Source: an uncultured Mycoplasma sp. (GTDB lineage Bacteria; Bacillota_I; Bacilli_A; RF39; UBA660). From it: DNA of 64,000 bases. The stretch lies in contig CAMEXD010000004.1 of the NCBI GenBank assembly GCA_945947035.1, forward strand, positions 2,362 through 66,361, given 5' to 3'. Positions 3,479-64,000 of this stretch are shown one piece after another. The notes beneath the pieces were generated by a model. It saw nothing but the letters and a program-made list of their open reading frames with translations. It was not told the origin of the DNA and made no database searches. Positions within the stretch are counted from its first letter, which is position 1; the number at the start of each line of letters is the position of its first letter. Made by a program: the position numbers and the translations under genes.

Positions 3479-5413
3479 ATGGGGGGGCAAGTTAAAAAAC
3501 TATCATTAATAATAGGAATAGTAGGATTATTAATATTAGTAATAGGAATAACGTTTGCCCTATATAATATAGACTTAAAAGGATTAAGAGAACATTTTAT
3601 AACAACAAATAAATTAACATTTTCTTATAAAGAACCAATCGAAAGTCTAAATTTAATATCGTATAATAGTTTGACAGACGAAGAAGGAAAAAAACAAAAT
3701 ACTTATTATGAATTTACAGTAAAAGGAACAAGTGAAGCACCTGAAGTAATAGACTATGTAATTTATTTACAAAAAGAAGAAGCAGAAAGAACTTTTAATG
3801 AAAGCGATTTGAAAGTATATTTAACAAAAGTGGAAAATGATGTTGAAACAGAAGTAGTTTCTCCAACCTTACTAAGTAAATTTTTAGAATATAATAATAT
3901 AAGTGATACTAAAGCATTATATGGAAGTAGTATGAATCTAACAGGGAATTTAGATATAACAGATACATATAGATTAAGAATCTGGTTAAAAGAAGATTTT
4001 GATTTTAATAGTTTAAAAAGTTCAACAACAACAAATGGAGAACAAAATATAAAAATAGAACAATACGAATATAAATTTAAAGTAAATGTAGCAACAGGAT
4101 TTATGCCAGAGATAAAATGTGATTCAATGTTAGTAGATAATAGTGGCGCAAATGCACCAGAATTACCGACAAATGCTATAGCAGTATGTTATAATAGTGC
4201 AAATGATGTCTGGTTAAAAGCAGATACAACTAATACAAATAGCAATTATCAATGGTATTCATATAGTGGAAAAACATGGGCCAATGCCGTAACAGTAACA
4301 GAAGCAAATAGAGAAGAATATTTAAATGCAGAAGTAGGAACAGAAATCAGTATGGATGATATAAATACAATGTGGGTGTGGATACCAAGGTTTACAGCTA
4401 CTGGTGATACAGCAAATTATAATGGAGGAACAATAGATAATCCTGGAGCATTTGATATAACATTTGTAAGTAAAACAACAACAGCACATGATGCATTCAC
4501 TTTTGGCACAGATGAATTAAACGGCTTTTGGGTAGGTAAATTTGAAACAGGAATTATTTCATCTGTAACCCTAGAATGTGATAATACTCTTGGAACATGT
4601 GATATATCGAATTTTTTAATAAAACCTGATGTAGGATCCTTTAGTATTGATAGTATAGAAGGTAGTAATAACAGTTTTAGTTTAGCTAATACTTTCTATT
4701 TCGGAAGGAGTATAGGAAAAAGTGGCAATCCATATGGGTTTGATAATACAAAAGATATAACACTAGATACCCATACTATAAAAAACAATGAATGTAGCGC
4801 AGTAGCATATTTAACTCAAAGTATCTATGGCAGATGTACGTCAAGTACAAATTGCACAGAAGTATATTTCAATAATAGTACTGGTTATACAGGTCGAAGT
4901 GGAGGAAATGTCGGGGGTTCAACACCAATAAATGAAACATATCCAGATCAAACATCAACAGATCAATATAATGCCTATGGATTTTACACATATGATGGAT
5001 ATTTATTAGAATATAATACTAATAATAAAACAACAACAAAGGATATGAGTAAAGTAGCATCAACAACCGGAAATATCTATGGTGTATATGATATGAGTGG
5101 TGGACGTTTTGAAACGGTCATGGGAATTTATGATGACACTACTGAATATGGCTTCAATATTAATGATGTAACTAATATTGATGCCAAATACTATAATAGT
5201 TATGATAGTAGTACAAATTATACCAATGCTAACTTACAACATGCTTTAGTAGAGACCAAAGGATGGTATGGAGACGGCGGTACTATGCCAAATCCTTATT
5301 CGCCGTATATTGCAAGAGGTGGAAGTTATGCTGAATCAGCTTCAAGTTCTGGTATTTTTTATTTCTATAGTTCTAGTCGTAGATATAATCCTCGTATCGT
5401 TTTGGTTAAATAA
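3479..5413 (+). CDS. membrane-anchored secreted protein with a C-terminal FGE-sulfatase (SUMF1/DUF323-like) domain, apparently phase-variable (see G7 tract)
   Basis: N-terminal signal anchor LSLIIGIVGLLILVIGITFALY. The C-terminal part carries FWVGKFETG, YGVYDMSGGRFETVMG and ARGGSYAESA, matching the conserved blocks of formylglycine-generating-enzyme-like domains. The ATG at 3479 lacks an RBS, and a strongly RBS-served ATG at 3460 is out of frame because of a G7 tract. Confidence 0.6.
   Translation: MGGQVKKLSLIIGIVGLLILVIGITFALYNIDLKGLREHFITTNKLTFSYKEPIESLNLISYNSLTDEEGKKQNTYYEFTVKGTSEAPEVIDYVIYLQKEEAERTFNESDLKVYLTKVENDVETEVVSPTLLSKFLEYNNISDTKALYGSSMNLTGNLDITDTYRLRIWLKEDFDFNSLKSSTTTNGEQNIKIEQYEYKFKVNVATGFMPEIKCDSMLVDNSGANAPELPTNAIAVCYNSANDVWLKADTTNTNSNYQWYSYSGKTWANAVTVTEANREEYLNAEVGTEISMDDINTMWVWIPRFTATGDTANYNGGTIDNPGAFDITFVSKTTTAHDAFTFGTDELNGFWVGKFETGIISSVTLECDNTLGTCDISNFLIKPDVGSFSIDSIEGSNNSFSLANTFYFGRSIGKSGNPYGFDNTKDITLDTHTIKNNECSAVAYLTQSIYGRCTSSTNCTEVYFNNSTGYTGRSGGNVGGSTPINETYPDQTSTDQYNAYGFYTYDGYLLEYNTNNKTTTKDMSKVASTTGNIYGVYDMSGGRFETVMGIYDDTTEYGFNINDVTNIDAKYYNSYDSSTNYTNANLQHALVETKGWYGDGGTMPNPYSPYIARGGSYAESASSSGIFYFYSSSRRYNPRIVLVK
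3481..3487 (+). repeat. homopolymeric G7 tract in the translation-initiation region of the 3479..5413 gene (candidate slipped-strand phase-variation switch)
   Basis: GGGGGGG at 3481-3487 in a roughly 27% GC genome. RBS AAAGGAGTG (3442-3450) serves the ATG at 3460, which reads MQAKIRHGGAS-stop with G7. With G6 or G9 it reads straight into the 644-aa ORF. Confidence 0.6.
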
Positions 5414-14433: not shown

Positions 14434-15012
14434 ATGAAAAATGAAATTGTAATATTTAAAAATCAAACTGTAAAATTAGAAGTAAATATGAAAGATGAGA
14501 CTGTTTGGCTAAACAGGGAACAAATGAGTAAATTATTTGATAGGGACATAAAAACAATTGGTAAACATATTAATAATGCTTTAAAAGAAGAACTTTATAG
14601 TTCAACTGTCGCAAAATTTGCGACAGTTCAAAATGAAGGAAACAAAACAGTAACGCGTAATATTGAATATTATAATTTGGATATGATTATAAGTGTTGGT
14701 TATCGTGTTAAATCAAAAAATGGTATAATTTTTAGAAAATGGGCAAATCAAATTTTAAAAGATTATCTAATAAAAGGTTATGCGATAAATAATAAAAGGT
14801 TAGAGTATCTTGAAAAAACAGTAAAATTAATTGATATAGCAAATAGAATAGATGAAAATTTAAAAGCAGAAGATGCCAAAGAAATATTAAAAGTAATAGG
14901 AAAATTTCAAAAATCTTTTGATTTGTTAGATAATTATGATAATAAGATATTTCCTAAACAAAGAGGAACAATTGGTTCTAAAACAATTACTTATGAAGAA
15001 TGTTTAATATAA
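14434..15012 (+). CDS. RhuM-family virulence-associated protein
   Basis: The blocks NIEYYNLDMIISVGYRVKSKNGIIFRKWANQILKDYLIKGY match the RhuM family core. Strong RBS AAGGAGG. Overlaps the next gene by 13 nt (operon). Confidence 0.7.
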   Translation: MKNEIVIFKNQTVKLEVNMKDETVWLNREQMSKLFDRDIKTIGKHINNALKEELYSSTVAKFATVQNEGNKTVTRNIEYYNLDMIISVGYRVKSKNGIIFRKWANQILKDYLIKGYAINNKRLEYLEKTVKLIDIANRIDENLKAEDAKEILKVIGKFQKSFDLLDNYDNKIFPKQRGTIGSKTITYEECLI

Positions 15013-15377
15013 TTAAAGAATTAAAATATAATGAAAAAAGCAAGTTATTTGCTTTAGAAAGAAATAAAGGACTAGAATCAATTATCGCTAATATTTATCA
15101 AACATTTGATGGAGAAGATGTTTATAAAACAATAGAAGAAAAAGCTGCCAACTTTTTGTATTTAATTGTTAAGAATCATGTTTTTATTGATGGCAATAAA
15201 AGAATAGCAGCAACACTTTTTATTTATTTTTTACAATATAATAATATTTTATATAGAAATAATCAATTTGTGATAGACAATAATACCTTAGCAGCACTAA
15301 CACTTCTTGTTGCAGAATCAGATTATAAAGAAAAAGATATATTAATTCCTTTAATAATGAACTTTTTATATGAATAA
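15000..15377 (+). CDS. Fic/Doc-family protein (Doc-like toxin motif)
   Basis: HVFIDGNKRIAA matches the Fic/Doc motif HxFx(D/N)GNKR. 125 aa, typical of Doc-type toxins. Confidence 0.7.
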   Translation: MFNIIKELKYNEKSKLFALERNKGLESIIANIYQTFDGEDVYKTIEEKAANFLYLIVKNHVFIDGNKRIAATLFIYFLQYNNILYRNNQFVIDNNTLAALTLLVAESDYKEKDILIPLIMNFLYE

Positions 15378-41691: not shown

Positions 41692-43764
41692 ATGCATAAA
41701 ATAGCAGATTTTATTGTAAAAAATAAAAAAATAATTCTGATTCTAAATTTGCTTTTATTAATACCAGCTATTATAGGTTTTAGTTTAACAAAAACAAATT
41801 ATGATATTTTAGTATATTTACCTAGTGATATTGAAACACTAAAAGGTCAAAATATATTAAAAGATGATTTCAAAATGGGTGCATTTTCTGTTTCTTTAGT
41901 AGATAATGATATAAGTGATAAAGAATTAATTACTTTGGAAAACAAAATTAGAGAGATAGATTGTGTTAATGATGTAGTTAGCATTAATGACATCACAGGA
42001 ACAACTATTCCTTTAGAGATGTTACCAAAGAAATTCGTTGATCATGTATCAACTGATGATTCTAAATTATTACTTATAACATTTTCAACTGGTACAAGTG
42101 ATGAAGAAACAACTGATGCAGTAAAAGAGATAGAGGAATTATCTAGTAGTATTAAAGTTGGTGGTATGAGTGCTATGTCTTTGGATATGAGAAGGTTAGT
42201 TGAAAGTCAAACTTTTACTTATGTGTTATTGGCAGTTGTATGTTGTCTAATTATACTAATGATATCTCTTGATTCATACATTGTTCCATTAATATTGTTA
42301 GGAAATATTGGAGTATCAATTCTATTTAATATGGGAACTAACATAATGTTTGGGGAAATATCTTATATCACCAAAGCAATTGCAGCTGTATTACAACTTG
42401 GAGTAACTACTGATTTTTCAATATTCCTATATCATAAATACGAAGCTGCTAAAAAGACTAAAAAAACAAATGATGAAGCCATGAGTGAAGCAATTAGTGA
42501 AACTATGACATCTGTAATTGGATCTTCACTTACAACTATTGCTGGTTTCTTAGCACTTTGTAGTATGAAGTTTGGTTTAGGAAAAGACATAGGTTTAGTA
42601 ATGGCTAAAGGAGTAGTATTTGGTGTTTTGACAGTATTAACTTTTTATCCAGCATTATTGTTAATGTCTGATAAATTAATTCAAAAAACAAAACATAAGA
42701 CATTGATTCCAAAGTTTAAATTCATTAAACCAATTGTTACAAAAGGATATAAATGGATATTTATAGTTTTCTTAATTTTATTAGTACCTGCATATTTATC
42801 TCAAAAAAATACAAATGTTTATTATAAATTAGATACAAGTATTCCAGAAGATTATAATTATTCAATTGTCAGCAAAAAATTAAAAGAAGATTATGGTTTA
42901 ATATCACAATCTATGATCCTAGTTAATAAGGATATGGATAGTAGTGATATGAATAATATGATAGATGAAATTAATGATATAGATGGTATTGATAGTGTTT
43001 TATCATCTGATGTATTAGTCAAATATGGAATATCAATTAATATTCTTCCATCTAAAATAAGAAACATTTTAGAAACTGACAATTATAAACTTATTCTTGT
43101 TAACTCAAATTATGAAATAGCAAGTGATGAAATAAATGAGCAGATAAAATATTTAAATACAATAATAAAAAAATACGATAAAAATGCAATACTTGCTGGA
43201 GAAGGACCATTAATGAATGATTTGGTTGAAATAACAGCAATAGACTTTAGAAATGTAAATTATGTTTCAATAGGAGTTATATTCTTAATTATGTTCTTCG
43301 TATTAAGATCAATTAGTTTACCAGCATTTCTTGTTTTATCAGTAGAGTTTGCAATATTTATAAATATGGGTGTTCCATATTGGCATGGCACTAGTATTCC
43401 GTTTGTTTCATCTATTGTAATTGGAACTATACAACTTGGTGCAACAATTGATTATGCAATTTTACTAACAACAAAATATTTGGAAGAAAGAAAAAATGGA
43501 AAAGATAAGAAAACTGCAATGGAAGAATCTTTAGATTCGTCAGTATCATCAATTTTTGTTAGTGCAATGTGTTTCTTCGGAGCAACTTTTGGAGTATATG
43601 TTGTTTCAAAAATTGATATGATTGGATCACTATGTTTATTGATGGCAAGAGGTGCTATTATAAGCATGCTTGTAGTTATGTTTATTGTACCTAGTGTGTT
43701 ATTATTATTTGATAAATTAATAACTAAAACAACATTGGGGTTTAAGAAAGGAAAGATAGTATGA
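41692..43764 (+). CDS. MMPL/RND-superfamily transporter (YdfJ/YdgH-like)
   Basis: Two 6-TM bundles separated by large extracytoplasmic loops. MMPL-like organisation. Confidence 0.7.
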   Translation: MHKIADFIVKNKKIILILNLLLLIPAIIGFSLTKTNYDILVYLPSDIETLKGQNILKDDFKMGAFSVSLVDNDISDKELITLENKIREIDCVNDVVSINDITGTTIPLEMLPKKFVDHVSTDDSKLLLITFSTGTSDEETTDAVKEIEELSSSIKVGGMSAMSLDMRRLVESQTFTYVLLAVVCCLIILMISLDSYIVPLILLGNIGVSILFNMGTNIMFGEISYITKAIAAVLQLGVTTDFSIFLYHKYEAAKKTKKTNDEAMSEAISETMTSVIGSSLTTIAGFLALCSMKFGLGKDIGLVMAKGVVFGVLTVLTFYPALLLMSDKLIQKTKHKTLIPKFKFIKPIVTKGYKWIFIVFLILLVPAYLSQKNTNVYYKLDTSIPEDYNYSIVSKKLKEDYGLISQSMILVNKDMDSSDMNNMIDEINDIDGIDSVLSSDVLVKYGISINILPSKIRNILETDNYKLILVNSNYEIASDEINEQIKYLNTIIKKYDKNAILAGEGPLMNDLVEITAIDFRNVNYVSIGVIFLIMFFVLRSISLPAFLVLSVEFAIFINMGVPYWHGTSIPFVSSIVIGTIQLGATIDYAILLTTKYLEERKNGKDKKTAMEESLDSSVSSIFVSAMCFFGATFGVYVVSKIDMIGSLCLLMARGAIISMLVVMFIVPSVLLLFDKLITKTTLGFKKGKIV

Positions 43765-45959
43765 AAAAGATATTTAAAAAATTATTAGCTTATACTTTAA
43801 TTCTTGGTGAATTATTTCAAACAACAGGAGTTTATGCACTCACAAAAGAAGAAACAGTATATGCAAAATTAAATGAAACAGGAGAATTAAAAAGTGCTTC
43901 TGTTACTGAACACTTATATAATTATAGTGGAAAGACAATTAGTGATAAAACTAGTTTAGATAGTATTAAAAATATTAACGGAAATGAAACATTTAAACAA
44001 AATGATAATAATCTTGTTTGGGAAGCTAATGGTAGTGATATTTATTATCAAGGTACATATGCAAAAAATTTACCAATAAGCCTTGATGTTAAATATTATT
44101 TAAATGGTGAAGAAAAAAATGTAAATAATATTTTAGGTAAAGATGGAAAGATTAAAATAGTTTTAACTTATAAAAATAATTCATATAAAAATATGAATAT
44201 TAATGGTAGAACAGAAAAAATATATGTTCCGTATGCCATAATTACAACATCTATATTAAATAATACTGATAATAAAAATATTAAGGTTACCAATGGTAAA
44301 ATTATTGATAATGGTGTAAATTCTGTTATAATGGCAATATCTTCACCTGGATTATATGAGTCTTTAAAAATAGATGATATAAAAGATATAAATAAAGTTG
44401 AAATAACTTATGATACCAGTGATTTTGAATTAAATTCTATTTATTCTGTTGCAACAACAAGTCTATTTGATGATAACAATCTTGATATGTTTGGTGAAAT
44501 TAATAATCTATATAAAAGCATAAATTTATTACAAAGTAATATGGATACAATTGTGGATGCATCAAAAAAATTAAGTGATGGATCTAGTCAAATGAATGCT
44601 GGTATTACAGAGTTAAATAGTAGAATACAAGAATTAACACAAAAATATAAGTATTATAGAAATCAAGATCAAAATACCCTAAAAGAAGAACTTATAAAGA
44701 TTATTAAGCAAAATATTAATACAATCACACCTGCATTAGAAGAAGAAATAACTGCTGAAACAAGTAAAATAATAAAAGAAAATAAAAGCGAATTAGAAAA
44801 TGCAATTATTACTTATACTAAAAAGAATACTATGTCAGTAGTAGATGAAGAAGTAAATAAAATAGTTAATAATTTAGATATAAATAGTTTAATGGAAAAA
44901 GTTATTAATAGTAATTTATACAATTTACTAATAAATGATTCAGAGATTGCAGAATTAACAAAAGCACTTAAAGAAGATATTAATAAAGAATTAAAGAATA
45001 TTATAGTTAATGAATTTAATAATATAGAAAGTAGCATAAATAACAATATGTCACAAAGCGAAAAAGAAAAATATATAAGTGATATAGCAGAAAAATATGA
45101 TGTAACTTATGAACAAGCATTAGGAATAGTTGGAGAAGTTCAAACAGATACTTTAAATCAAGTAAAAAAGAACATCAGTGAAGCCAATATTCCAGAAAAA
45201 ATTATTAATTCTCTAAATGATAAAAATTATGTATTAAATTTAGTTAATGAATATATAAATAAATTAAATAGTAAATTAAATGAATCAATTAACAAAGATA
45301 CAACTGTTAATGAATATTCTAAAGAATTAAAAGAAAAAATATTATCAGCACTAAATAAAGATTTAGAAAATGAAAGTATGTATTTAAATACTAATGTTAA
45401 AGAATATATTTCAAGTTTAGTTGATAAAATAATTGATAATACTGCAAAAGATTTATCAAGCAAATATACTGAAGAATACACAAATAAAGTTGTTAAAAAT
45501 GTCATTGACAAGGAATTTAGTGAAGAAAATGTTGATTCAAAACTAAGAGAATTATTAAATATTTATGAAGATGATATAAATAAAAAGGTAACAGTTTTAG
45601 ATGATACCATAAATACATTATCAGATTCTTTAAATATGTTAAATGATGGATCAAAACAAATTTCAACAGGTATGAGTGCATTATCATCAGGACTTGAAAA
45701 ATACAATAAAGAAGGAATAAATAAAATTAATAATCTAGTTAATGGAGATGTTAAAACTCTTCAAAAAAGATTAGATGCACTTATTCAATTAAGTAATAAT
45801 AATCAAACAATAGACACTCTTCCTAATAGTGCTAATGGTAATTCAAAAATTATATTTATGATTGATTCATTATCCAAGCCATCCGAAACTATTGTTGAAA
45901 CTAGCAAAGAAGAACAAAAAAGTTCTCTCTGGGATAAAATAAAAGGACTGTTTAATTAA
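43761..45959 (+). CDS. secreted protein with YhgE/Pip-like repeats and long coiled coils
   Basis: Signal peptide. Repeated DGS.Q...G...L..G heptad-like units (SDGSSQMNAGITEL, NDGSKQISTGMSAL). Translationally coupled to the MMPL gene. Confidence 0.45.
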   Translation: MKKIFKKLLAYTLILGELFQTTGVYALTKEETVYAKLNETGELKSASVTEHLYNYSGKTISDKTSLDSIKNINGNETFKQNDNNLVWEANGSDIYYQGTYAKNLPISLDVKYYLNGEEKNVNNILGKDGKIKIVLTYKNNSYKNMNINGRTEKIYVPYAIITTSILNNTDNKNIKVTNGKIIDNGVNSVIMAISSPGLYESLKIDDIKDINKVEITYDTSDFELNSIYSVATTSLFDDNNLDMFGEINNLYKSINLLQSNMDTIVDASKKLSDGSSQMNAGITELNSRIQELTQKYKYYRNQDQNTLKEELIKIIKQNINTITPALEEEITAETSKIIKENKSELENAIITYTKKNTMSVVDEEVNKIVNNLDINSLMEKVINSNLYNLLINDSEIAELTKALKEDINKELKNIIVNEFNNIESSINNNMSQSEKEKYISDIAEKYDVTYEQALGIVGEVQTDTLNQVKKNISEANIPEKIINSLNDKNYVLNLVNEYINKLNSKLNESINKDTTVNEYSKELKEKILSALNKDLENESMYLNTNVKEYISSLVDKIIDNTAKDLSSKYTEEYTNKVVKNVIDKEFSEENVDSKLRELLNIYEDDINKKVTVLDDTINTLSDSLNMLNDGSKQISTGMSALSSGLEKYNKEGINKINNLVNGDVKTLQKRLDALIQLSNNNQTIDTLPNSANGNSKIIFMIDSLSKPSETIVETSKEEQKSSLWDKIKGLFN

Positions 45960-56194: not shown

Positions 56195-58558
56195 ATGAAT
56201 AGAAGAATTAAAAATGCTAAAACATTTACTAATATTAAATGTATTGGCGATGATGGATTATTAGAACTAAAAAATGGTGGATATGCTTCTTTAATAGAAA
56301 TTAAAGCAGTTGATTTATCATTATCTAGTAATCAAGAGAAAACCAATTTCTTTAATTCATTAAAAGTTTTATATCAAATTAAAGATTTGAATTTAAAATG
56401 TTATAAACTTGATGAGCCAATTAATTTAAATAATAATAAATTGAATTTATCTAAACTTATTGAAAAACTAAAGAATTGTGCTAGAAAAGTATTTCTATTA
56501 AACGAAAGAAAAAGTTTGATAGAAGAATTAGAAGAGAATAATTTTACTGTTTCTAGTATTTATTATTTAGTTGTAATAGCAAAAGATTTAAACATATTAG
56601 AAAGACAACTAGATGAAATAGAAGATTTACTCGCTAATCTTCAACCTAAAATAACAGCAGAAATAATTAATAATAGATTAGAAATATATAAATTTTTATC
56701 TAATTTATATATGTGTAAAAATCCACTTGATTTATTAATGTGGGCAGATTTAATGGAACTAATTGTTCCGTTAAATATTTCTGAAAGAACTAATATGTTA
56801 AAAATAGATGACAATGAAGTTCAAATGGTAACAATTAAAAATATTCCACCATTTGTAGATGAATTGTTTTTTGAAGAGATATTTAATTATCCAAATGTTA
56901 GAAGTTGTATCAATATTAAGGATGCGATAGATCAAGATGAATTAATCAGGTGGGTTAATTCACAATATCAGTTTTTATTATCAGATAGAAATACTACTAA
57001 AAAATTAAGTGATGCAACAGAACTTGATACTCAAAAAGAAAATTTTCAATTACTTATGAATGATATAAAAAATGGTGATGAAAAAATAAAAGAAGTATCT
57101 TTAATTTTAATGGTTACTGGTAATAAAAAAGAACGAGATGAAATAATCAGAGATTTAAAAAGAATAGTTGAAAGGTATCAAATAAAATTAGATATTCCAA
57201 GACTTCGTCAAATGGAAACTTTTCAATGTTTTGATATAACTAATCTTTCTTTAAAGGATTATTCAGTTTATTTACCAACACTTACTTTAAGTGCAGGTTT
57301 TCCATTCACTAAAACATATTTTAATGATTCAACAGGATATATGCTAGGAGTTGATATTCATACAAGTTTACCAATCTTCTTTGATCCATTTGTTTTAAAT
57401 AATAAAAGAACTTCTCATAATGTAGCAATTATATCTTCAACCGGTGGAGGTAAAAGTTTTACTATGAAGAAAATGATTGTTAATGAATATGCAAGAGGAA
57501 CTAAAATTTTTATTTTTGATGCAGAAAATGGGTATGAAAAATTAGTTAAAGCAAATGATGGAGAATATATAGATTTGTATTCTAAAAAAGGTGGAATGAT
57601 TAATCCACTTCAAATAAGATATATTCCAAGCGATGAGAAACAAGAAACAAAAGAAACAGATTGTCCTCTAGCTAAACACTTAGGATTTTTAGATGCATTT
57701 TTCAAAAGTGCTTTTGATGATATTAAAGAAAAAGAATTAGTTATGCTTTTAGCAATACTTGAGGATTTATATAATAAAAAAGGTATTTATAAAAATACTT
57801 CAATAAATACTTTGCAAGAATTAAGACCAGAAGATTATCCTATATTTTCTGATTTATATAATTATCTTCCAGAATATAAAAAGAAACTAGATAGTATAGA
57901 AAAGCAAAAATTAGTAGATCAGTTAGATGTGTTGTTATCCAGATTTTTAACTGGAACTGATTCATTTTTATTTAATGGTCATACAAATATTGATTTAAAT
58001 AATGATTTAATTGCATTTAATCTTCAAGAACTACTTTATAGTGGTAATCAGAGATTAATAAATACTCAAACATTAAATCTATTAACTTATTTAAATAATA
58101 GTATTGTTGCAAATAAAATAATCAATGTAAAGAGAAATTCTGGTGATAAACAACATATTAGTATTGTTGTTGATGAATTTCATTTATATATTGATGAAAA
58201 CAATAATGAAGTAATTAAGAATTTTGGACAACTTGCAAGAAGATGCAGGAAGTACAACACTAATTTGATTTTATCTAGTCAATGTATATCTGACTTTTTA
58301 GGAAATGCAACAGTTCTTCGTCATGCTTCTGCTATATTTAATAACTGTCAATATACTATGATAGGAATGTTAAAGGAAGATGATTTAAAAGCATATTTAG
58401 AATTATTTAAAAACAATCCTTTAACTGATACTCAAAAAGCATTTCTTTTAGGTGCAAGACGAGGTGAGTTCTTACTTAATATAGACAATAAAACTAGATT
58501 AAGAATATGGATAAGAGCTACCGAAACGGAAAGAGAAATGATGGGGGAGATTGAATAA
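56195..58558 (+). CDS. VirB4/TraE/TcpF-family conjugative ATPase
   Basis: Walker A STGGGKSF, Walker B IVVDEFH, 787 aa. Confidence 0.85.
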   Translation: MNRRIKNAKTFTNIKCIGDDGLLELKNGGYASLIEIKAVDLSLSSNQEKTNFFNSLKVLYQIKDLNLKCYKLDEPINLNNNKLNLSKLIEKLKNCARKVFLLNERKSLIEELEENNFTVSSIYYLVVIAKDLNILERQLDEIEDLLANLQPKITAEIINNRLEIYKFLSNLYMCKNPLDLLMWADLMELIVPLNISERTNMLKIDDNEVQMVTIKNIPPFVDELFFEEIFNYPNVRSCINIKDAIDQDELIRWVNSQYQFLLSDRNTTKKLSDATELDTQKENFQLLMNDIKNGDEKIKEVSLILMVTGNKKERDEIIRDLKRIVERYQIKLDIPRLRQMETFQCFDITNLSLKDYSVYLPTLTLSAGFPFTKTYFNDSTGYMLGVDIHTSLPIFFDPFVLNNKRTSHNVAIISSTGGGKSFTMKKMIVNEYARGTKIFIFDAENGYEKLVKANDGEYIDLYSKKGGMINPLQIRYIPSDEKQETKETDCPLAKHLGFLDAFFKSAFDDIKEKELVMLLAILEDLYNKKGIYKNTSINTLQELRPEDYPIFSDLYNYLPEYKKKLDSIEKQKLVDQLDVLLSRFLTGTDSFLFNGHTNIDLNNDLIAFNLQELLYSGNQRLINTQTLNLLTYLNNSIVANKIINVKRNSGDKQHISIVVDEFHLYIDENNNEVIKNFGQLARRCRKYNTNLILSSQCISDFLGNATVLRHASAIFNNCQYTMIGMLKEDDLKAYLELFKNNPLTDTQKAFLLGARRGEFLLNIDNKTRLRIWIRATETEREMMGEIE

Positions 58559-59346
58559 TGTCAACGAGAAGCAGTATTGCCATTAAAAGAAAAGATGGAA
58601 CAGTTCAAAGTGTATATTGTCATAGTGATGGTTATTTAGAATATAACGGAGTTATGCTTAATAAATTTTATAAAGATCAGAAGAAGATAAATTCGCTTAT
58701 TAATTTAGGTGATTTATCTTTTTTAGATAGAAAAGTTAATCCAGAAAAAGGAATAACACACAGTTTTGATTATGAAAAAAGACAAGAGGGTGTAACTGTT
58801 GCTTATGTTAGAGATAGAAATGATAAAAATACTCAAAAGCATATTCATAAATCGGTAGATGATTATATTAAATCATTTGCTAATTCATGGCAAGAATATG
58901 CTTATTTGTATGATGAAGAAAATCATAAATGGTTATGGTCTGAAATACCTATTGATAATAAAGATGGAATGAACTTTATACCATTAGAAGATACATTAAA
59001 TAAAAAAGGCTTAATGGAACGAGTGGATAAAAAATTCAATGATATAATATGGCAACAAATTGAATTTGAAAAAGGATTTGATATAGGAACTTATAATGAA
59101 GTTTATGAATCAGACGAAGATGCTTATTATGACTATCAAACTTTATTATCAACTCCAAAAGGAATAAAAGGACATATAGAGGCATTAAAAGGTTATATTG
59201 ATGATATGGAAAATGATAATACAGAATTTGTTAAAACAGTACCTAAGAAATTTATCAAGATAGCTAAAAACAATATTAAGTCTTTAGAAAAATATGCAAA
59301 GGAAGTTTATCCTTATTTTGATGAAGTTGAGTTTCCAGAAATATAG
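58558..59346 (+). CDS. hypothetical conjugation-module protein
   Basis: 262 aa, soluble, start overlaps the VirB4 stop. Confidence 0.3.
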   Translation: MSTRSSIAIKRKDGTVQSVYCHSDGYLEYNGVMLNKFYKDQKKINSLINLGDLSFLDRKVNPEKGITHSFDYEKRQEGVTVAYVRDRNDKNTQKHIHKSVDDYIKSFANSWQEYAYLYDEENHKWLWSEIPIDNKDGMNFIPLEDTLNKKGLMERVDKKFNDIIWQQIEFEKGFDIGTYNEVYESDEDAYYDYQTLLSTPKGIKGHIEALKGYIDDMENDNTEFVKTVPKKFIKIAKNNIKSLEKYAKEVYPYFDEVEFPEI

Positions 59347-59355
59347 GAGTTAATA

Positions 59356-60270
59356 TTGAAGAAAAAAGTATTAAAAATCATTTTGGGTTCATCAACAGGA
59401 TTAATTTTTATGTCAATTATAATAATTGTTCCTGTTCTTATGTTATTGGATTTTTTCGGTGCTAATATTACAGATGGCTATATTGAAAATAATAGTGATT
59501 ATGCAGATATGTATCAAAGTGTTGTTAGAAAAAATGTTAAAGCTGGAAATGGCTATGTTTCTCTAAGTAGGATTTTATATTTCTACTTAGAGAACAATCA
59601 ATTAACTTTTGATATGATTTATACTGATAATTTAGATACTGATTTAAAGCAAGAAAAACCAATATCAGAAGTATGTGAATTGAATAGATATAAAATATAT
59701 TCTGTTTGCAATAAAGATGAACTTGAAGATTCTGGACAAATAAATGAGATTCAAAATAAACCTTTTACAAGTCCACTTGATTATGACAAATTAAATGTAA
59801 CGAGTTTTTTTATGCAAGAGAGAATTGTATATGGAACTGCTGATGTTCATCCTGCTTGGGATTTTGCATCACCAGCTCAAACACCAATTTATTCGGTATG
59901 TGATGGTAAAGTAGAAACAGTATCATTTAGATATTCTACTAACACTATTGATAAAAGTGGTGGAGGTGGAAATCAGATAGTAGTGTCTTGTGATGTAGAT
60001 GATATTACTTATAAAGTTAGATATGCTCATCTATATCCCGATTCTTCTACTGTAAAAGAAGGGGATATGGTAACTCAAAATCAAAAAATAGCAACTGTTG
60101 GAACAACAGGATATTCAACAGGAAACCACTTACATTTTCAAGTATCAAAGGATGGAACACCGGTCGATGGATTAAGTTTAATAGATTTTACTAATACTAA
60201 TTATACTAATCCATTTGTAATACCATCTAATCCAAATTATGGACTAGATAATGGATTGTTTTATCCTTAA
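59356..60270 (+). CDS. membrane-anchored M23 (LytM) peptidase, T4SS cell-wall hydrolase
   Basis: N-terminal TM. HPAWD (HxxxD) and GNHLHFQV (HxH) M23 motifs. Confidence 0.8.
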   Translation: MKKKVLKIILGSSTGLIFMSIIIIVPVLMLLDFFGANITDGYIENNSDYADMYQSVVRKNVKAGNGYVSLSRILYFYLENNQLTFDMIYTDNLDTDLKQEKPISEVCELNRYKIYSVCNKDELEDSGQINEIQNKPFTSPLDYDKLNVTSFFMQERIVYGTADVHPAWDFASPAQTPIYSVCDGKVETVSFRYSTNTIDKSGGGGNQIVVSCDVDDITYKVRYAHLYPDSSTVKEGDMVTQNQKIATVGTTGYSTGNHLHFQVSKDGTPVDGLSLIDFTNTNYTNPFVIPSNPNYGLDNGLFYP

Positions 60271-60349
60271 ATCTATATATAAAAAATAAGTATAGATGGA
60301 TTAAATACACACTTGTTGTGGATTATTTTGCAAGTGCAAAATGTGAAAT

Positions 60350-60416
60350 AATATCACTAAAATTGCTGTTTTTACTTATAAAAATGCTAGTAGTGATATT
60401 GTTTCCTTTATCCTGC
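60350..60416 (+). other. candidate oriT: 10-bp inverted repeat AATATCACTA-N31-TAGTGATATT followed 9 nt later by ATCCTGC (MOBP/Q-type nic consensus)
   Basis: Upstream dyad ATTTTGCA-AG-TGCAAAAT at 60325-60342. Sits in front of an RHH gene. Nic core YATCCTG|Y at 60408-60416. Confidence 0.4.
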
Positions 60417-60467
60417 TTACAAATAGTGCTTATTTTTAATATATTTCAATCCATAAAAGGAGGGATT

Positions 60468-60647
60468 ATGTCACATTATTTATTAAGAATAAGAAGTGAA
60501 GTTTACGATAGAATTAGATTATTCGCTAAACAAGAAAATATAAGTATAAACAAAATGATAATCAAACTTATTTCAATAGGTATGATTACATATTTAAAAG
60601 GAGGAATGAGTAATGAAAATGTCGTTAACCAAGTTAATAGCAAATGA
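60468..60647 (+). CDS. ribbon-helix-helix (CopG/Arc-like) protein, candidate relaxosome accessory factor
   Basis: Strong RBS AAAGGAGGG then ATG 60468. MSHYLLRIRSEVYDRIRLFAKQENISINKMIIKLI has the beta-strand/helix-helix pattern. Confidence 0.45.
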   Translation: MSHYLLRIRSEVYDRIRLFAKQENISINKMIIKLISIGMITYLKGGMSNENVVNQVNSK

Positions 60648-61032
60648 TATCATTAACTATGGAATGAATGATACTACAGCTGATCAATATATAGTTTATT
60701 TAGATAGTTATTTAGATGATTTTGATGAGAAATCTAAAAAATATATTTTAGATAATTTAGATCAGATAGTAGAAGATGTAGAATCAAATGATAAAGTTTG
60801 TGATTTAGAATATGATAAAAAAGAAAAATCTTTTGATATGATTTTTTACTGGGATTGTTTATTTAATCCAGTTGATGAATTAGTAATGAATGTATTAAAA
60901 GAAAAAGAAATGGGAGATAAAATTAGAATTTATGAAGTTAAAGGTATTGCTCAAGAAGTTCTAGATGATGAAGGAACAAAGAATTTAGCTTATGAAAAAA
61001 TCTTGAATTATCATACGGAGTTTGAACTATGA
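60613..61032 (+). CDS. acidic hypothetical protein
   Basis: 139 aa. No motif. Confidence 0.3.
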   Translation: MKMSLTKLIANDIINYGMNDTTADQYIVYLDSYLDDFDEKSKKYILDNLDQIVEDVESNDKVCDLEYDKKEKSFDMIFYWDCLFNPVDELVMNVLKEKEMGDKIRIYEVKGIAQEVLDDEGTKNLAYEKILNYHTEFEL

Positions 61033-61421
61033 AGTTAAGGTATTATACTAATACCGAGATTGAAAAAATTAAAAGCAATATGTTTGTAATAGATGTATTG
61101 CATAAAAGAAGAATAGAGTATGATTATGTATTTAAATTATGGTGTGTAATGATGAGATTAAAGTTTCCAGAATTAACTGGTAAACAGATTTTTGAAAGAG
61201 CTGGATTTGATACTTCTATACTTCATGATTATCTTCCATATAGAAGAATTGGTGAATGGGTTAAAAGTTATAAAAAATTTGGAGTATATTATTTTATTCC
61301 AGAAGATGAACCTTATCATTCTATAAAAGTTAAAACTAAAAAACAAAAACTAGATATTTTTAAATTAAAACTTTTAAAGGTTGTTTTAAAAGATTTAAAA
61401 AAATTAGATAAGGATAAATAA
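61029..61421 (+). CDS. hypothetical protein
   Basis: 130 aa basic. Confidence 0.3.
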   Translation: MKLRYYTNTEIEKIKSNMFVIDVLHKRRIEYDYVFKLWCVMMRLKFPELTGKQIFERAGFDTSILHDYLPYRRIGEWVKSYKKFGVYYFIPEDEPYHSIKVKTKKQKLDIFKLKLLKVVLKDLKKLDKDK

Positions 61422-61696
61422 TGTTTAGGGAAGAATACAATTATAGATATGATATTCAAGTAAAGGTTGAATGTGAACATTGTGAGAATAGTTTTATTAG
61501 ACATGATGTTTTAAAAACAACTTATCCAGAAACAAAAGAAAGCTTAGAAGAAATGTATGAAAATAGTTGTGAAGGATTATCAGAAGAAGAAACGACTCAT
61601 TGTGAAAAATGTGATGGTTATATGTTTGAAACTGAAGTTATTAAATTCTTTGAAACTCCAATTACAAAGGAGATAGGCGATATTGAAATTGGATAG
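61421..61696 (+). CDS. zinc-ribbon protein (two CxxC pairs)
   Basis: CEHCEN ... HCEKCDG. Confidence 0.3.
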   Translation: MFREEYNYRYDIQVKVECEHCENSFIRHDVLKTTYPETKESLEEMYENSCEGLSEEETTHCEKCDGYMFETEVIKFFETPITKEIGDIEIG

Positions 61697-62006
61697 ACAT
61701 ATAAAAGTAGATGAAGAACTTCACAATAAGATTTTATTACTGTCTAAAGAATCTAAACTTTCGTATTCTGATGAAGTAAGTTTATTAGTAGAAGAAGCAC
61801 TATCTAATAGAATTAAGCAAACACAGTTAGATAAGATGCAAAATGATATTTTATATTTAGTTAAAAAGGTTAATTTACTATATTTATTAGTTAAGCAGAT
61901 GTATTCAGATTTTAATATTAATCCAAATAATATTACTGATCCTAAAACTAGTCCTGCTTTAAATGAATTTTTAAGAAAGGTTAAAGTTAATAGATTAGAT
62001 GACTAG
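61683..62006 (+). CDS. hypothetical protein, possible RHH/MobC-like accessory
   Basis: N-terminus HIKVDEELHNKILLLSKESKLSYSDEVSLLVEEAL. Confidence 0.25.
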   Translation: MKLDRHIKVDEELHNKILLLSKESKLSYSDEVSLLVEEALSNRIKQTQLDKMQNDILYLVKKVNLLYLLVKQMYSDFNINPNNITDPKTSPALNEFLRKVKVNRLDD

Positions 62007-62724
62007 TCCTAAAGTAATATTCAATTGTAGATTTACTCATGCTTTTAATAGAAAAGAAGCTCATTATACTAAAAAACAAATTGAAGGATTAAAAAAGAAA
62101 ATTGCTCGTAAATTTGATTATTTTTCAAATGAAGAAAAAAGAGTAATGAATCTATTTGAATACTATGTTGGTAATTTAACTAAAAAAGAAACAATGAATC
62201 TTGTAATTGAAAATGGTAAATATGCTACTCCTGAAGAAATAGAAAGAAGGAAGAAAAGATTTATCAAATATGCAGAAAAATCTAACTTATGGCAAGGTGT
62301 CATAAGCTTTAATAATGAGTATTTAACTCAAAATATTACATTACAGGATTTGGAACAGGAAGTAATTAAAAATGTGCTTCCTCGTTTCTTTAAAAAAATG
62401 GGATTTAAAGATATAGATAAAATGGCTTATAATTTATCTCTTCATACTGATACTGATAACTTGCATATTCATTTTAGTTTTATAGAGAAGCAACCTAACT
62501 ATATTTATTATAATAAAAAAGTTGATTATAGAAGAAAAGGTGAACTATCACAAGAAGAAATTGATTTCTTAAAAAATGAAGTTGTCATTGCTGTAGAAAG
62601 GAATCAATTTCTTTCACCTATGATAAAAATGACTAATGATGAAATAGAAAAATTAAAAAAACATTTTAATCCAAAAGAAAAGAATTTTATTTTATATGAT
62701 AAAAAGGATTTATTATTAGAATAA
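61999..62724 (+). CDS. HUH relaxase (MobA/VirD2-type, PF03432-like), N-terminal 241 codons up to an in-frame TAA
   Basis: Histidine-triad motif HTDTDNLHIHFSFI (HxDxxNxHxH). Tyr23 candidate in AHYTKKQ. The same frame continues after TAA 62722-62724 as 62725..63312. Confidence 0.65.
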   Translation: MTSPKVIFNCRFTHAFNRKEAHYTKKQIEGLKKKIARKFDYFSNEEKRVMNLFEYYVGNLTKKETMNLVIENGKYATPEEIERRKKRFIKYAEKSNLWQGVISFNNEYLTQNITLQDLEQEVIKNVLPRFFKKMGFKDIDKMAYNLSLHTDTDNLHIHFSFIEKQPNYIYYNKKVDYRRKGELSQEEIDFLKNEVVIAVERNQFLSPMIKMTNDEIEKLKKHFNPKEKNFILYDKKDLLLE

Positions 62725-63312
62725 AAAATATTAAGAGTTGGTAAATTACTTTATCAAGAAAGAAAAGATAAATATAAAAGAATAAAATTTAATTCTTTAA
62801 GAGATGAAGAAATAAAATCATTAGTGAAAGATATTAAAAAGTATTTATTTAATAGCAAAGGTGAATTTTATAATGATTATGTTGATTTTAAAAGAAGTTT
62901 AAAGAGTATAAATGATTATCTATTTAAGGTTAATATTGATAATAATGTTTCTAATATTGTTATCAATGACAAATACACTACTGAAAAAGAACAATATACA
63001 GATAATTATATATTTAATGCTATTGTTAATCATGCTAATTATTTCTTTAAAAAGAATTCAAAAAAATATCATACTTTAAATGAAGATGATATTTTAAGAG
63101 AAATATTTTTAAATGAATATAAAAAAAATAAACAACAAACAAGAGCTACAATTTTAGAAAACTATTTAACAAATACTGTTAAAACTCAAAAATATAAGAA
63201 TCGTTATAAAGTAAGAAATGCTATTAGAAATATAAATAATGAAATGGAAGAAGCTCAAAAAGAGTTTAGTAAATTATTCCAACCTGATAATTCATATTCT
63301 AAAAATTATTAA
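62725..63312 (+). CDS. relaxase C-terminal continuation (same frame as 61999..62724, separated by a single TAA). Called as ORF 62824..63312
   Basis: Frame identity (both frame 1). Open from 62725. Basic/Asn-rich tail typical of relaxase C-terminal regions. Confidence 0.4.
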   Translation, partial: KILRVGKLLYQERKDKYKRIKFNSLRDEEIKSLVKDIKKYLFNSKGEFYNDYVDFKRSLKSINDYLFKVNIDNNVSNIVINDKYTTEKEQYTDNYIFNAIVNHANYFFKKNSKKYHTLNEDDILREIFLNEYKKNKQQTRATILENYLTNTVKTQKYKNRYKVRNAIRNINNEMEEAQKEFSKLFQPDNSYSKNY

Positions 63313-63336
63313 AGAGAGGAGATGGTTTAATGCCAA

Positions 63337-64000
63337 ATTGGACTATGAATAAAATAACTTGTAAAAAATCAATTGGTGATAAAATACTAACTAAAACTGA
63401 TGATGGATATTCATTTGACTTTAATAAATTAATTCCAATGCCAAAAGAAATGAATATTCCAGCAGGTTCTACAGAACATATTGCAGTAGCTAGTTATTAT
63501 CATTCACTTGATAAACAAGGTAAAAGAGATTTAGAAGACCAACTTGAAAAAAGTAAGGTCTTTTTTGATTCTGATTATTGGAGAAGATATGAAACATATA
63601 TTGATGATTACACAAAAGAACCAGATAAATTAAAAAAGGAAGAAGAAAATTTTAAATATAGAGATAATGAACAAATTAAAAAGTTTAGTTCTTATTCAGA
63701 ATTAGGTAAACAGTATGTAGATAATATCATCAATTATGGATATTCTCAATGGTATGATTGGTGTAGTGAAGTATGGGGAACAAAATGGAATGTTGAAGAT
63801 GAAGTAGATGTTGAATATTATCCAGAAAGTGATGAATATGAAATAGAATTCAACACAGCTTGGTGTGTTCCTTATGGAATAGTTGAAGAATATAGTAAGC
63901 TTTGCTCTGATGAGGAATTTGATTGGCAATATATTAATGAAGATTATGATGGACATCATCATTTGCGAAAACATAATGAAGTAATAAGTGATACTGTCAT
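63337..64000 (+). CDS. hypothetical ICE protein, 5' partial view (continues past window end)
   Basis: RBS GAGAGGAG then ATG 63337. Open to 64000. Contains SEVWGTKWNV ... FNTAWCVP blocks. Confidence 0.4.

Follow-up and report, generated by a model that had tools for sequence, protein, structure and literature searches.

A conjugative element beside chromosomal genes

The window, by which we mean the whole 64,000-nucleotide stretch of DNA analysed here, has a G+C content of ~25%, and its first part (1-41 kb) is chromosomal, with genes for MiaA, a germination protease, a PASTA-type penicillin-binding protein, a class I tRNA synthetase, acyl-CoA synthetases, a two-component system, CdsA, and a RelA/SpoT-domain protein. 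This part also contains adjacent small RhuM- and Fic-domain genes (14434-15377; precomputed Pfam matches on the NCBI contig), which could be a toxin-like or prophage remnant pair. Two large ORFs, of 644 aa (3479-5413) and 732 aa (43761-45959), match no Pfam family at E ≤0.01, and the latter is located directly downstream of an MMPL transporter gene, just before the first recognisable gene of a conjugative element.

The genes of this element start at ~46 kb and code for a sigma-70 region 4 protein, a thioester/SpaA-repeat adhesin, a sortase, two SSBs, a pilin-like protein, a VirB4-like ATPase, and an M23 peptidase, followed by five small ORFs and a relaxase. A VirB4-like ATPase, a cell-wall hydrolase and a relaxase are thus clustered beside chromosomal genes, the arrangement that marks an integrated conjugative element (ICE) with type IV secretion, and in terms of Pfam families the cluster is based on P-loop_TraG/DUF87, Peptidase_M23, and a weak match to T4SS_pilin. 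The conjugation ATPase (56195-58558, + strand, 787 aa; precomputed Pfam matches P-loop_TraG and DUF87) has the same length as its counterpart in the related contig L004, and the M23 peptidase, the predicted cell-wall hydrolase (59356-60270, + strand), is 85% identical to its orthologue in L019 over the full length. The surface protein (48166-51604, 939 aa) combines a thioester domain with six SpaA-type repeats, is followed by the sortase gene, and is probably the mating adhesin of the element. A 138-aa ORF at 52822-53238 matches only the N-terminal resolvase part of a serine recombinase (26.8 bits), which is too little for a full recombinase, and the window showed no other integrase.

The five small ORFs between the peptidase and relaxase genes begin with a 59-aa ORF (60468-60647, + strand) that has a strong ribosome-binding site (aaaaggaggg) and was called as a gene both in its own contig and in the relatives. 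Its only Pfam match, HicB, is weak (E = 0.027), and it may encode a ribbon-helix-helix accessory protein. Three unrelated small ORFs separate it from a 107-aa ORF (61683-62006, + strand), which is conserved in all relatives, shows no significant Pfam match, and overlaps the start of the relaxase gene by 8 bases. The 107-aa product is possibly an auxiliary relaxosome protein, and the overlap resembles that of aux2 and rel on plasmid pLS20 (PMC5675868). Downstream of the relaxase gene lies another gene (63330 to the window end at 64000, + strand), which codes for 236 aa if the rest of the contig is included. It is preceded by a strong ribosome-binding site of its own (agagaggag) and has no Pfam family.

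Relatives of the element were found in metagenome-assembled genomes (MAGs) of uncultured gut Bacilli, Clostridia, ‘Tenericutes’, and Coprobacillus, several of them from a mouse gut catalogue, and gene order is conserved among them. In L004, a VirD4-type coupling protein is encoded 7.2 kb downstream of the relaxase gene; the matching part of the element studied here lies beyond the window end. The same relative carries an extra 124-aa ORF (L004 3664-4050, a 386-base segment) between an 87-aa ORF and the VirB4-like gene, which is absent from the window at ~56065. Past the window end, the gene following the 236-aa ORF (L001 12029-13057, corresponding to 64027-65055) is 98% identical to the DUF4313 protein of the relatives over its first 126 residues, after which it diverges completely and runs off the contig. 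This divergence suggests a module swap at the cargo end of the element.

An in-frame stop splits a single relaxase gene

As indicated by an ORF scan of the window, the relaxase frame starts with ATG at 61999 on the + strand and is closed after 241 codons (61999-62721) by TAA at 62722-62724. The interruption described in the initial annotation is therefore present, with the same frame open again directly after the stop for 195 sense codons, up to a native TAA at 63310-63312 (62725-63312 including this stop). At the base composition of the window ~10% of random codons are stops, which puts the chance probability of 195 open codons after the stop at ~1e-9, and thus the open run is not due to chance. 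The part after the stop shows 70-98% protein identity to the C-terminal halves of the listed homologues. Two long open stretches in the same frame that are split by one stop occur at four other places in the window. These are ordinary neighbour genes that differ in Pfam family and in which a start codon follows the stop at a distance of at most 12 bases, such as acyltransferase and acyl-CoA synthetase, synthetase and patatin, or an unknown ORF and MiaA. Among such same-frame pairs in the window, the relaxase is the sole real interruption seen. A tblastn search of the window returned no second relaxase copy that could complement it.

When the two parts were joined and used as a query, more than 1,300 homologues were matched. 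The 120 best of these are all 432-447 aa long, with 98-100% coverage of the joined query, so the ~437 aa proposed for the joined protein is indeed a normal size for such a relaxase. Colinearity across the stop, for which a comparison had been proposed, was apparent in an alignment of the window sequence with 13 homologues, all of which run through the position and have Glu or Asp in the stop column (13/13). The 241-aa product itself falls within a cluster at 90% identity (n = 36), and the 14 other members listed are all 437-443 aa. Intact orthologues from uncultured gut Bacilli, Clostridia, and ‘Tenericutes’ MAGs (P0122, P0001, and L004-L014) are 70-99.6% identical to the window gene and share its neighbours, namely the M23 peptidase, the five small ORFs, the 236-aa ORF, and a candidate origin of transfer (oriT). 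They have Glu at codon 242 and comprise 435-443 residues in one piece, whereas the window copy is split.

The nearest intact relatives, L019-L022 (protein P0122), are present on ten contigs from several sequencing runs and differ from the window gene at 5 of 1,335 bases (99.6% DNA identity). These differences are a synonymous change at 62601, G/T at 62722, Asp/Asn at 63037, a synonymous change at 63045, and the native stop. The codon corresponding to 62722-62724 is GAA (Glu) in L019-L022 and also in L002, L003, and L018, and compared with these sequences the premature TAA at codon 242 is a single G-to-T substitution at 62722. The difference at the native stop is that L019-L022 have CAA at the equivalent of 63310, which adds six residues (QREEMV) and gives an extended relaxase of 443 aa on all ten contigs, the TAA of which overlaps the ATG of the next gene.

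The divergence from the relatives is mosaic. Compared to L002, codons 1-154 show no synonymous differences and codons 155-437 show 26. L022 matches the window at 99.6% identity over 3.3 kb; for L019 and L020, whose relaxase allele is the same, identity over 6.4 kb is only 92.6%. In these alignments the uneven divergence points to recombination between element variants.

The initial annotation had left open whether the split reflects a nonsense mutation, a sequencing error, or a genuine two-part arrangement. It had also proposed that homologues terminating naturally here, followed by a separate gene with a ribosome-binding site of its own, would speak for two genes. We searched for such cases and found none: no homologue ends at codon 241, and the second half lacks a start with a ribosome-binding site. 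The first in-frame ATG, GTG or TTG beyond the TAA is the GTG at 62824, 34 codons downstream. This GTG has no Shine-Dalgarno motif, whereas nearby genes have strong ones, and the matching codon in L002 reads GTA. Because the homologues are colinear and the relatives have GAA at codon 242, the two-part arrangement was rejected, and the first two readings remain. In comparison with its homologues, the locus is one relaxase gene of the MOBL family and not two genes.

The fragment before the stop comprises the nicking domain

The 241-aa part scores 46.4 bits against the Pfam family MobL (PF18555; cut-off 28.5) and 30.3 bits against the MobA/VirD2-like family Relaxase (PF03432; cut-off 24.6), and the joined sequence scores 41.1 bits against MobL. 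The MobL match covers only positions 2-226 of the 383 profile positions, and judged by these profiles this clade has a C-terminal domain that cannot be recognised as the equivalent of the C-terminal half of MobL and pLS20 relaxases. The histidine triad of motif III (HxDxxxxHxH; HTDTDNLHIHF in the window) and the N-terminal tyrosine proposed earlier both held up: H149, H156, and H158 are invariant in 36 homologues, and Tyr23 is invariant as well. Based on sequence, the sole solved relative is the chain named ‘Relaxase’ in PDB entries 9qq7, 9qq8, and 9qq9. Residues 3-217 of the window protein align to this 234-residue chain of 9qq7, which corresponds to the nicking domain only (E = 3e-9). H152, H159, and H161 of 9qq7 align with H149, H156, and H158, and in the profile alignment Tyr25 of 9qq7 aligns with Tyr23, which is thus the predicted catalytic tyrosine. 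In length and motif positions the 9qq7 chain fits the N-terminal domain of RelLS20. By the Pfam matches and this alignment, the 241 codons before the stop hold a complete HUH nicking domain plus ~20 residues.

RelLS20, encoded by the Bacillus subtilis plasmid pLS20, is described as the founding MOBL relaxase, and its N-terminal fragment N-RelLS20 (residues 1-232) nicks oriT DNA in vitro, for which Tyr26 is needed (PMC5313138). According to PMC8829557, it is the C-terminal domain of pLS20 Rel, and not the N-terminal domain, that binds Aux1. RelLS20 and the window family have much in common: an N-terminal HUH domain with a histidine triad and a tyrosine near residue 25, a separate C-terminal domain, a total length of ~430-440 aa, a Firmicutes host, and a gene position inside a conjugation operon behind small ORFs of which the final one overlaps the start of the relaxase gene. 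The sequence similarity is distant, and the window copy differs in that it stops at codon 242. The predicted 241-residue product corresponds almost exactly to N-RelLS20, but the latter is a laboratory truncation, whereas the truncation in the window would have arisen naturally by a nonsense change. Thus, the window gene has the MOBL profile match, the histidine triad, and the N-terminal tyrosine, and lacks the one continuous polypeptide that every relative examined has, as the TAA at codon 242 splits it. It is a disrupted member of a known family and nothing new in kind.

A conserved candidate origin of transfer

Conservation exceeds that of the flanking genes in the 197-base intergenic region at 60271-60467, which precedes the 59-aa ORF and likely holds a putative oriT. 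The candidate (60325-60419, + strand) consists of the palindrome ATTTTGCAAGTGCAAAAT, a 15-nt inverted repeat with arms at 60345-60359 and 60391-60405, and then an invariant CCTTTATCCTGCTT. A T-to-G change that L006 carries in one arm of the repeat is accompanied by a compensating A-to-C change in the opposite arm. The TATCCTG/C in the candidate oriT resembles the nick consensus of RP4 and T-DNA borders. The candidate differs from the nick region of pLS20, which is GC-rich and on the template strand, in being AT-rich with TATCCTGC on the coding strand. The motif TATCCTGC occurs twice in the window where one occurrence is expected, which is not above chance, and only its position and conservation are suggestive.

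The C-terminal half is a selected domain without signs of decay

For a rough domain boundary we used an AlphaFold model of an intact orthologue, which has a mean pLDDT of 59. This model contains an alpha/beta domain up to residue ~221, a poorly defined loop, and, at low confidence, helices from 235 to 426. The alignment to 9qq7 and this model together place codon 242 immediately behind the nicking domain, where a conserved, probably all-helical C-terminal domain begins that is intact in the relatives. Between pairs of intact relatives, dN/dS is 0.08-0.29 for the C-terminal half and 0.03-0.13 for the N-terminal half, and the C-terminal half contains many residues that are invariant in the family alignment, indicating that it is a translated domain under selection.

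The differences between the window gene and L019 amount to no non-synonymous and one synonymous change before the stop (0N/1S), and one of each after it (1N/1S). The single non-synonymous change is D347N, and Asn is also found here in the intact homologues P0007 and P0008. A comparison with L002 had given what seemed a signal of decay, with 2N/14S before and 6N/12S after the stop. This signal disappeared against the closer L019, and the L002 split also agrees with the higher dN/dS that the C-terminal half shows throughout the family. Since there is no decay downstream relative to L019, the stop is, as far as these substitution counts can tell, either very recent or a consensus error.

Readthrough and other ways in which the split gene might function

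The position of the stop just past the domain boundary, a fragment that amounts to a complete nicking domain, the in vitro nicking by the equivalent pLS20 fragment, and a downstream frame that is still fully open are all in line with a functional arrangement. In such an arrangement the TAA would be read through or bypassed, yielding some full-length relaxase at a low level; alternatively, each half would be made on its own, or the lone nicking domain would be the selected product, with a role such as rolling-circle maintenance of the excised element. We regard this as very unlikely. No relative examined has a stop here, and therefore a readthrough signal could not have been selected; programmed readthrough or recoding goes with a stop that is conserved in related genes, whereas every relative examined has a sense codon of the GAA/GAT class (E or D). 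Moreover, the TAA is followed by A, and TAA followed by A is an efficient terminator in bacteria. The missing start codon and ribosome-binding site of the second half likewise speak against separate production of the halves, there is no tRNA gene in the window, and the variant is known from one source only.

In a narrower form, the nonsense allele would be real but retained for a useful stand-alone nicking domain, or tolerated owing to low-level readthrough sufficient for transfer, and to this we give hardly any credence. If it were true, the stand-alone nicking domain might nick the conserved oriT for rolling-circle replication or maintenance of the excised element, or the half-relaxase might act as a decoy that blocks transfer, with self-transfer lost in either case, making it a natural ‘domesticated’ half-relaxase.

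That the genetic code of the organism reads TAA as a sense codon has nothing in its favour beyond the in-frame TAA itself. On the + strand, 27 of the 44 open frames of at least 150 codons end in TAA, translation with table 11 leaves genes across the whole window intact, and the native stop of the relaxase is itself TAA. Stop codon usage and the intact ORFs across the window thus ruled out an alternative code, and the chance that this reading is correct is practically negligible.

Nonsense mutation or consensus error

This leaves the question of whether the TAA is present in the organism. We consider it likely that it is a real nonsense allele, by which Glu242 (GAA) was changed into a stop codon as an ordinary and recent gene inactivation. 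The competing explanation is an intact relaxase gene in the organism, with the TAA stemming from an error in sequencing or in the consensus or from a minor population variant. In support of this, it concerns a single-base difference from relatives that are 99.6% identical, there is no further lesion or excess of non-synonymous changes downstream, the source is a fragmented MAG, and the TAA has been seen in probably only one sample. On the other hand, the T appears in two assemblies that differ in contig structure. It is also one of 14 substitutions, with zero indels, that separate the window from L022 over 3.3 kb, which corresponds to ordinary strain variation, whereas substitution errors in a consensus are far rarer, and the change is not one of homopolymer length. 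Weighing these points, we regard an error or minor variant as rather unlikely, albeit a possibility to be reckoned with.

The two assemblies require some comment. Only two contigs on record carry the exact 241-aa product, one at NCBI and one at ENA. The NCBI carrier is contig JAIFIJ010000327.1 (36,328 bases) of MAG GCA_019973115.1, and the longest contig of the ENA carrier measures 78,834 bases. JAIFIJ010000327.1 is 100% identical to window positions 51999-64000, and the chromosomal part of the window sits on a separate 25.3-kb contig in GCA_019973115.1. The window thus derives from another assembly with longer contigs, probably that of ENA. Because the assemblies are fully identical over 12 kb, and both were probably built from the same reads, they do not amount to independent confirmation of the T at 62722. 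A scan of JGI metagenome contigs with a degenerate 48-mer spanning the stop gave one match, which reads GAA.

A second damaged relaxase of the same element family was found on a 2.5-kb contig from another sample (L024 787-1625; ENA ERZ28614876). This relative is 86% identical, and the frame of its relaxase is also destroyed, but by an internal deletion of 473 bases, corresponding to window positions 62196-62667, that removes the histidine triad and shifts the frame, whereas the window copy carries a point nonsense change. Judged from this one contig, the deletion would be either an independent inactivation or a misassembly. As an independent loss of the relaxase it would speak against an error at 62722, since it would indicate that such loss recurs in nature.

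Probable consequences for mobility of the element

Based on the foregoing, we propose the following course of events. The host would be a low-GC, spore-forming gut Bacillota bacterium with the relaxase gene on an integrated conjugative element, in which a very recent G-to-T substitution would have changed GAA into TAA, turning Glu242 into a stop. Translation would then end ~20 residues past the HUH nicking domain, and the cell would make at most a nicking-domain fragment of 241 residues without the 195-residue helical C-terminal domain. Judging from pLS20, such a fragment may retain the ability to cut the origin of transfer, but it would lack the family-conserved part that contacts an auxiliary relaxosome protein, and this would disable either relaxosome assembly or substrate delivery. 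The conservation of the C-terminal domain, together with the binding of Aux1 by this domain in pLS20, suggests that self-transfer has probably been lost, and that the element is probably no longer self-transmissible. That the T at 62722 is real in the organism and that transfer has been lost is what we infer from this combination of conservation and pLS20 biochemistry.

In terms of annotation, 61999-63312 should be treated as one interrupted gene, a pseudogene, and its two ORFs not as two genes. For this copy of a widespread conjugative element of gut Bacillota, the finding means that the relaxase, and hence its own mobility, has probably just been lost, which is of little wider importance but cautions against counting the element in the window as mobile. 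For work on MOBL-type elements in uncultured gut bacteria, the intact relatives and the strongly conserved candidate oriT could prove useful.
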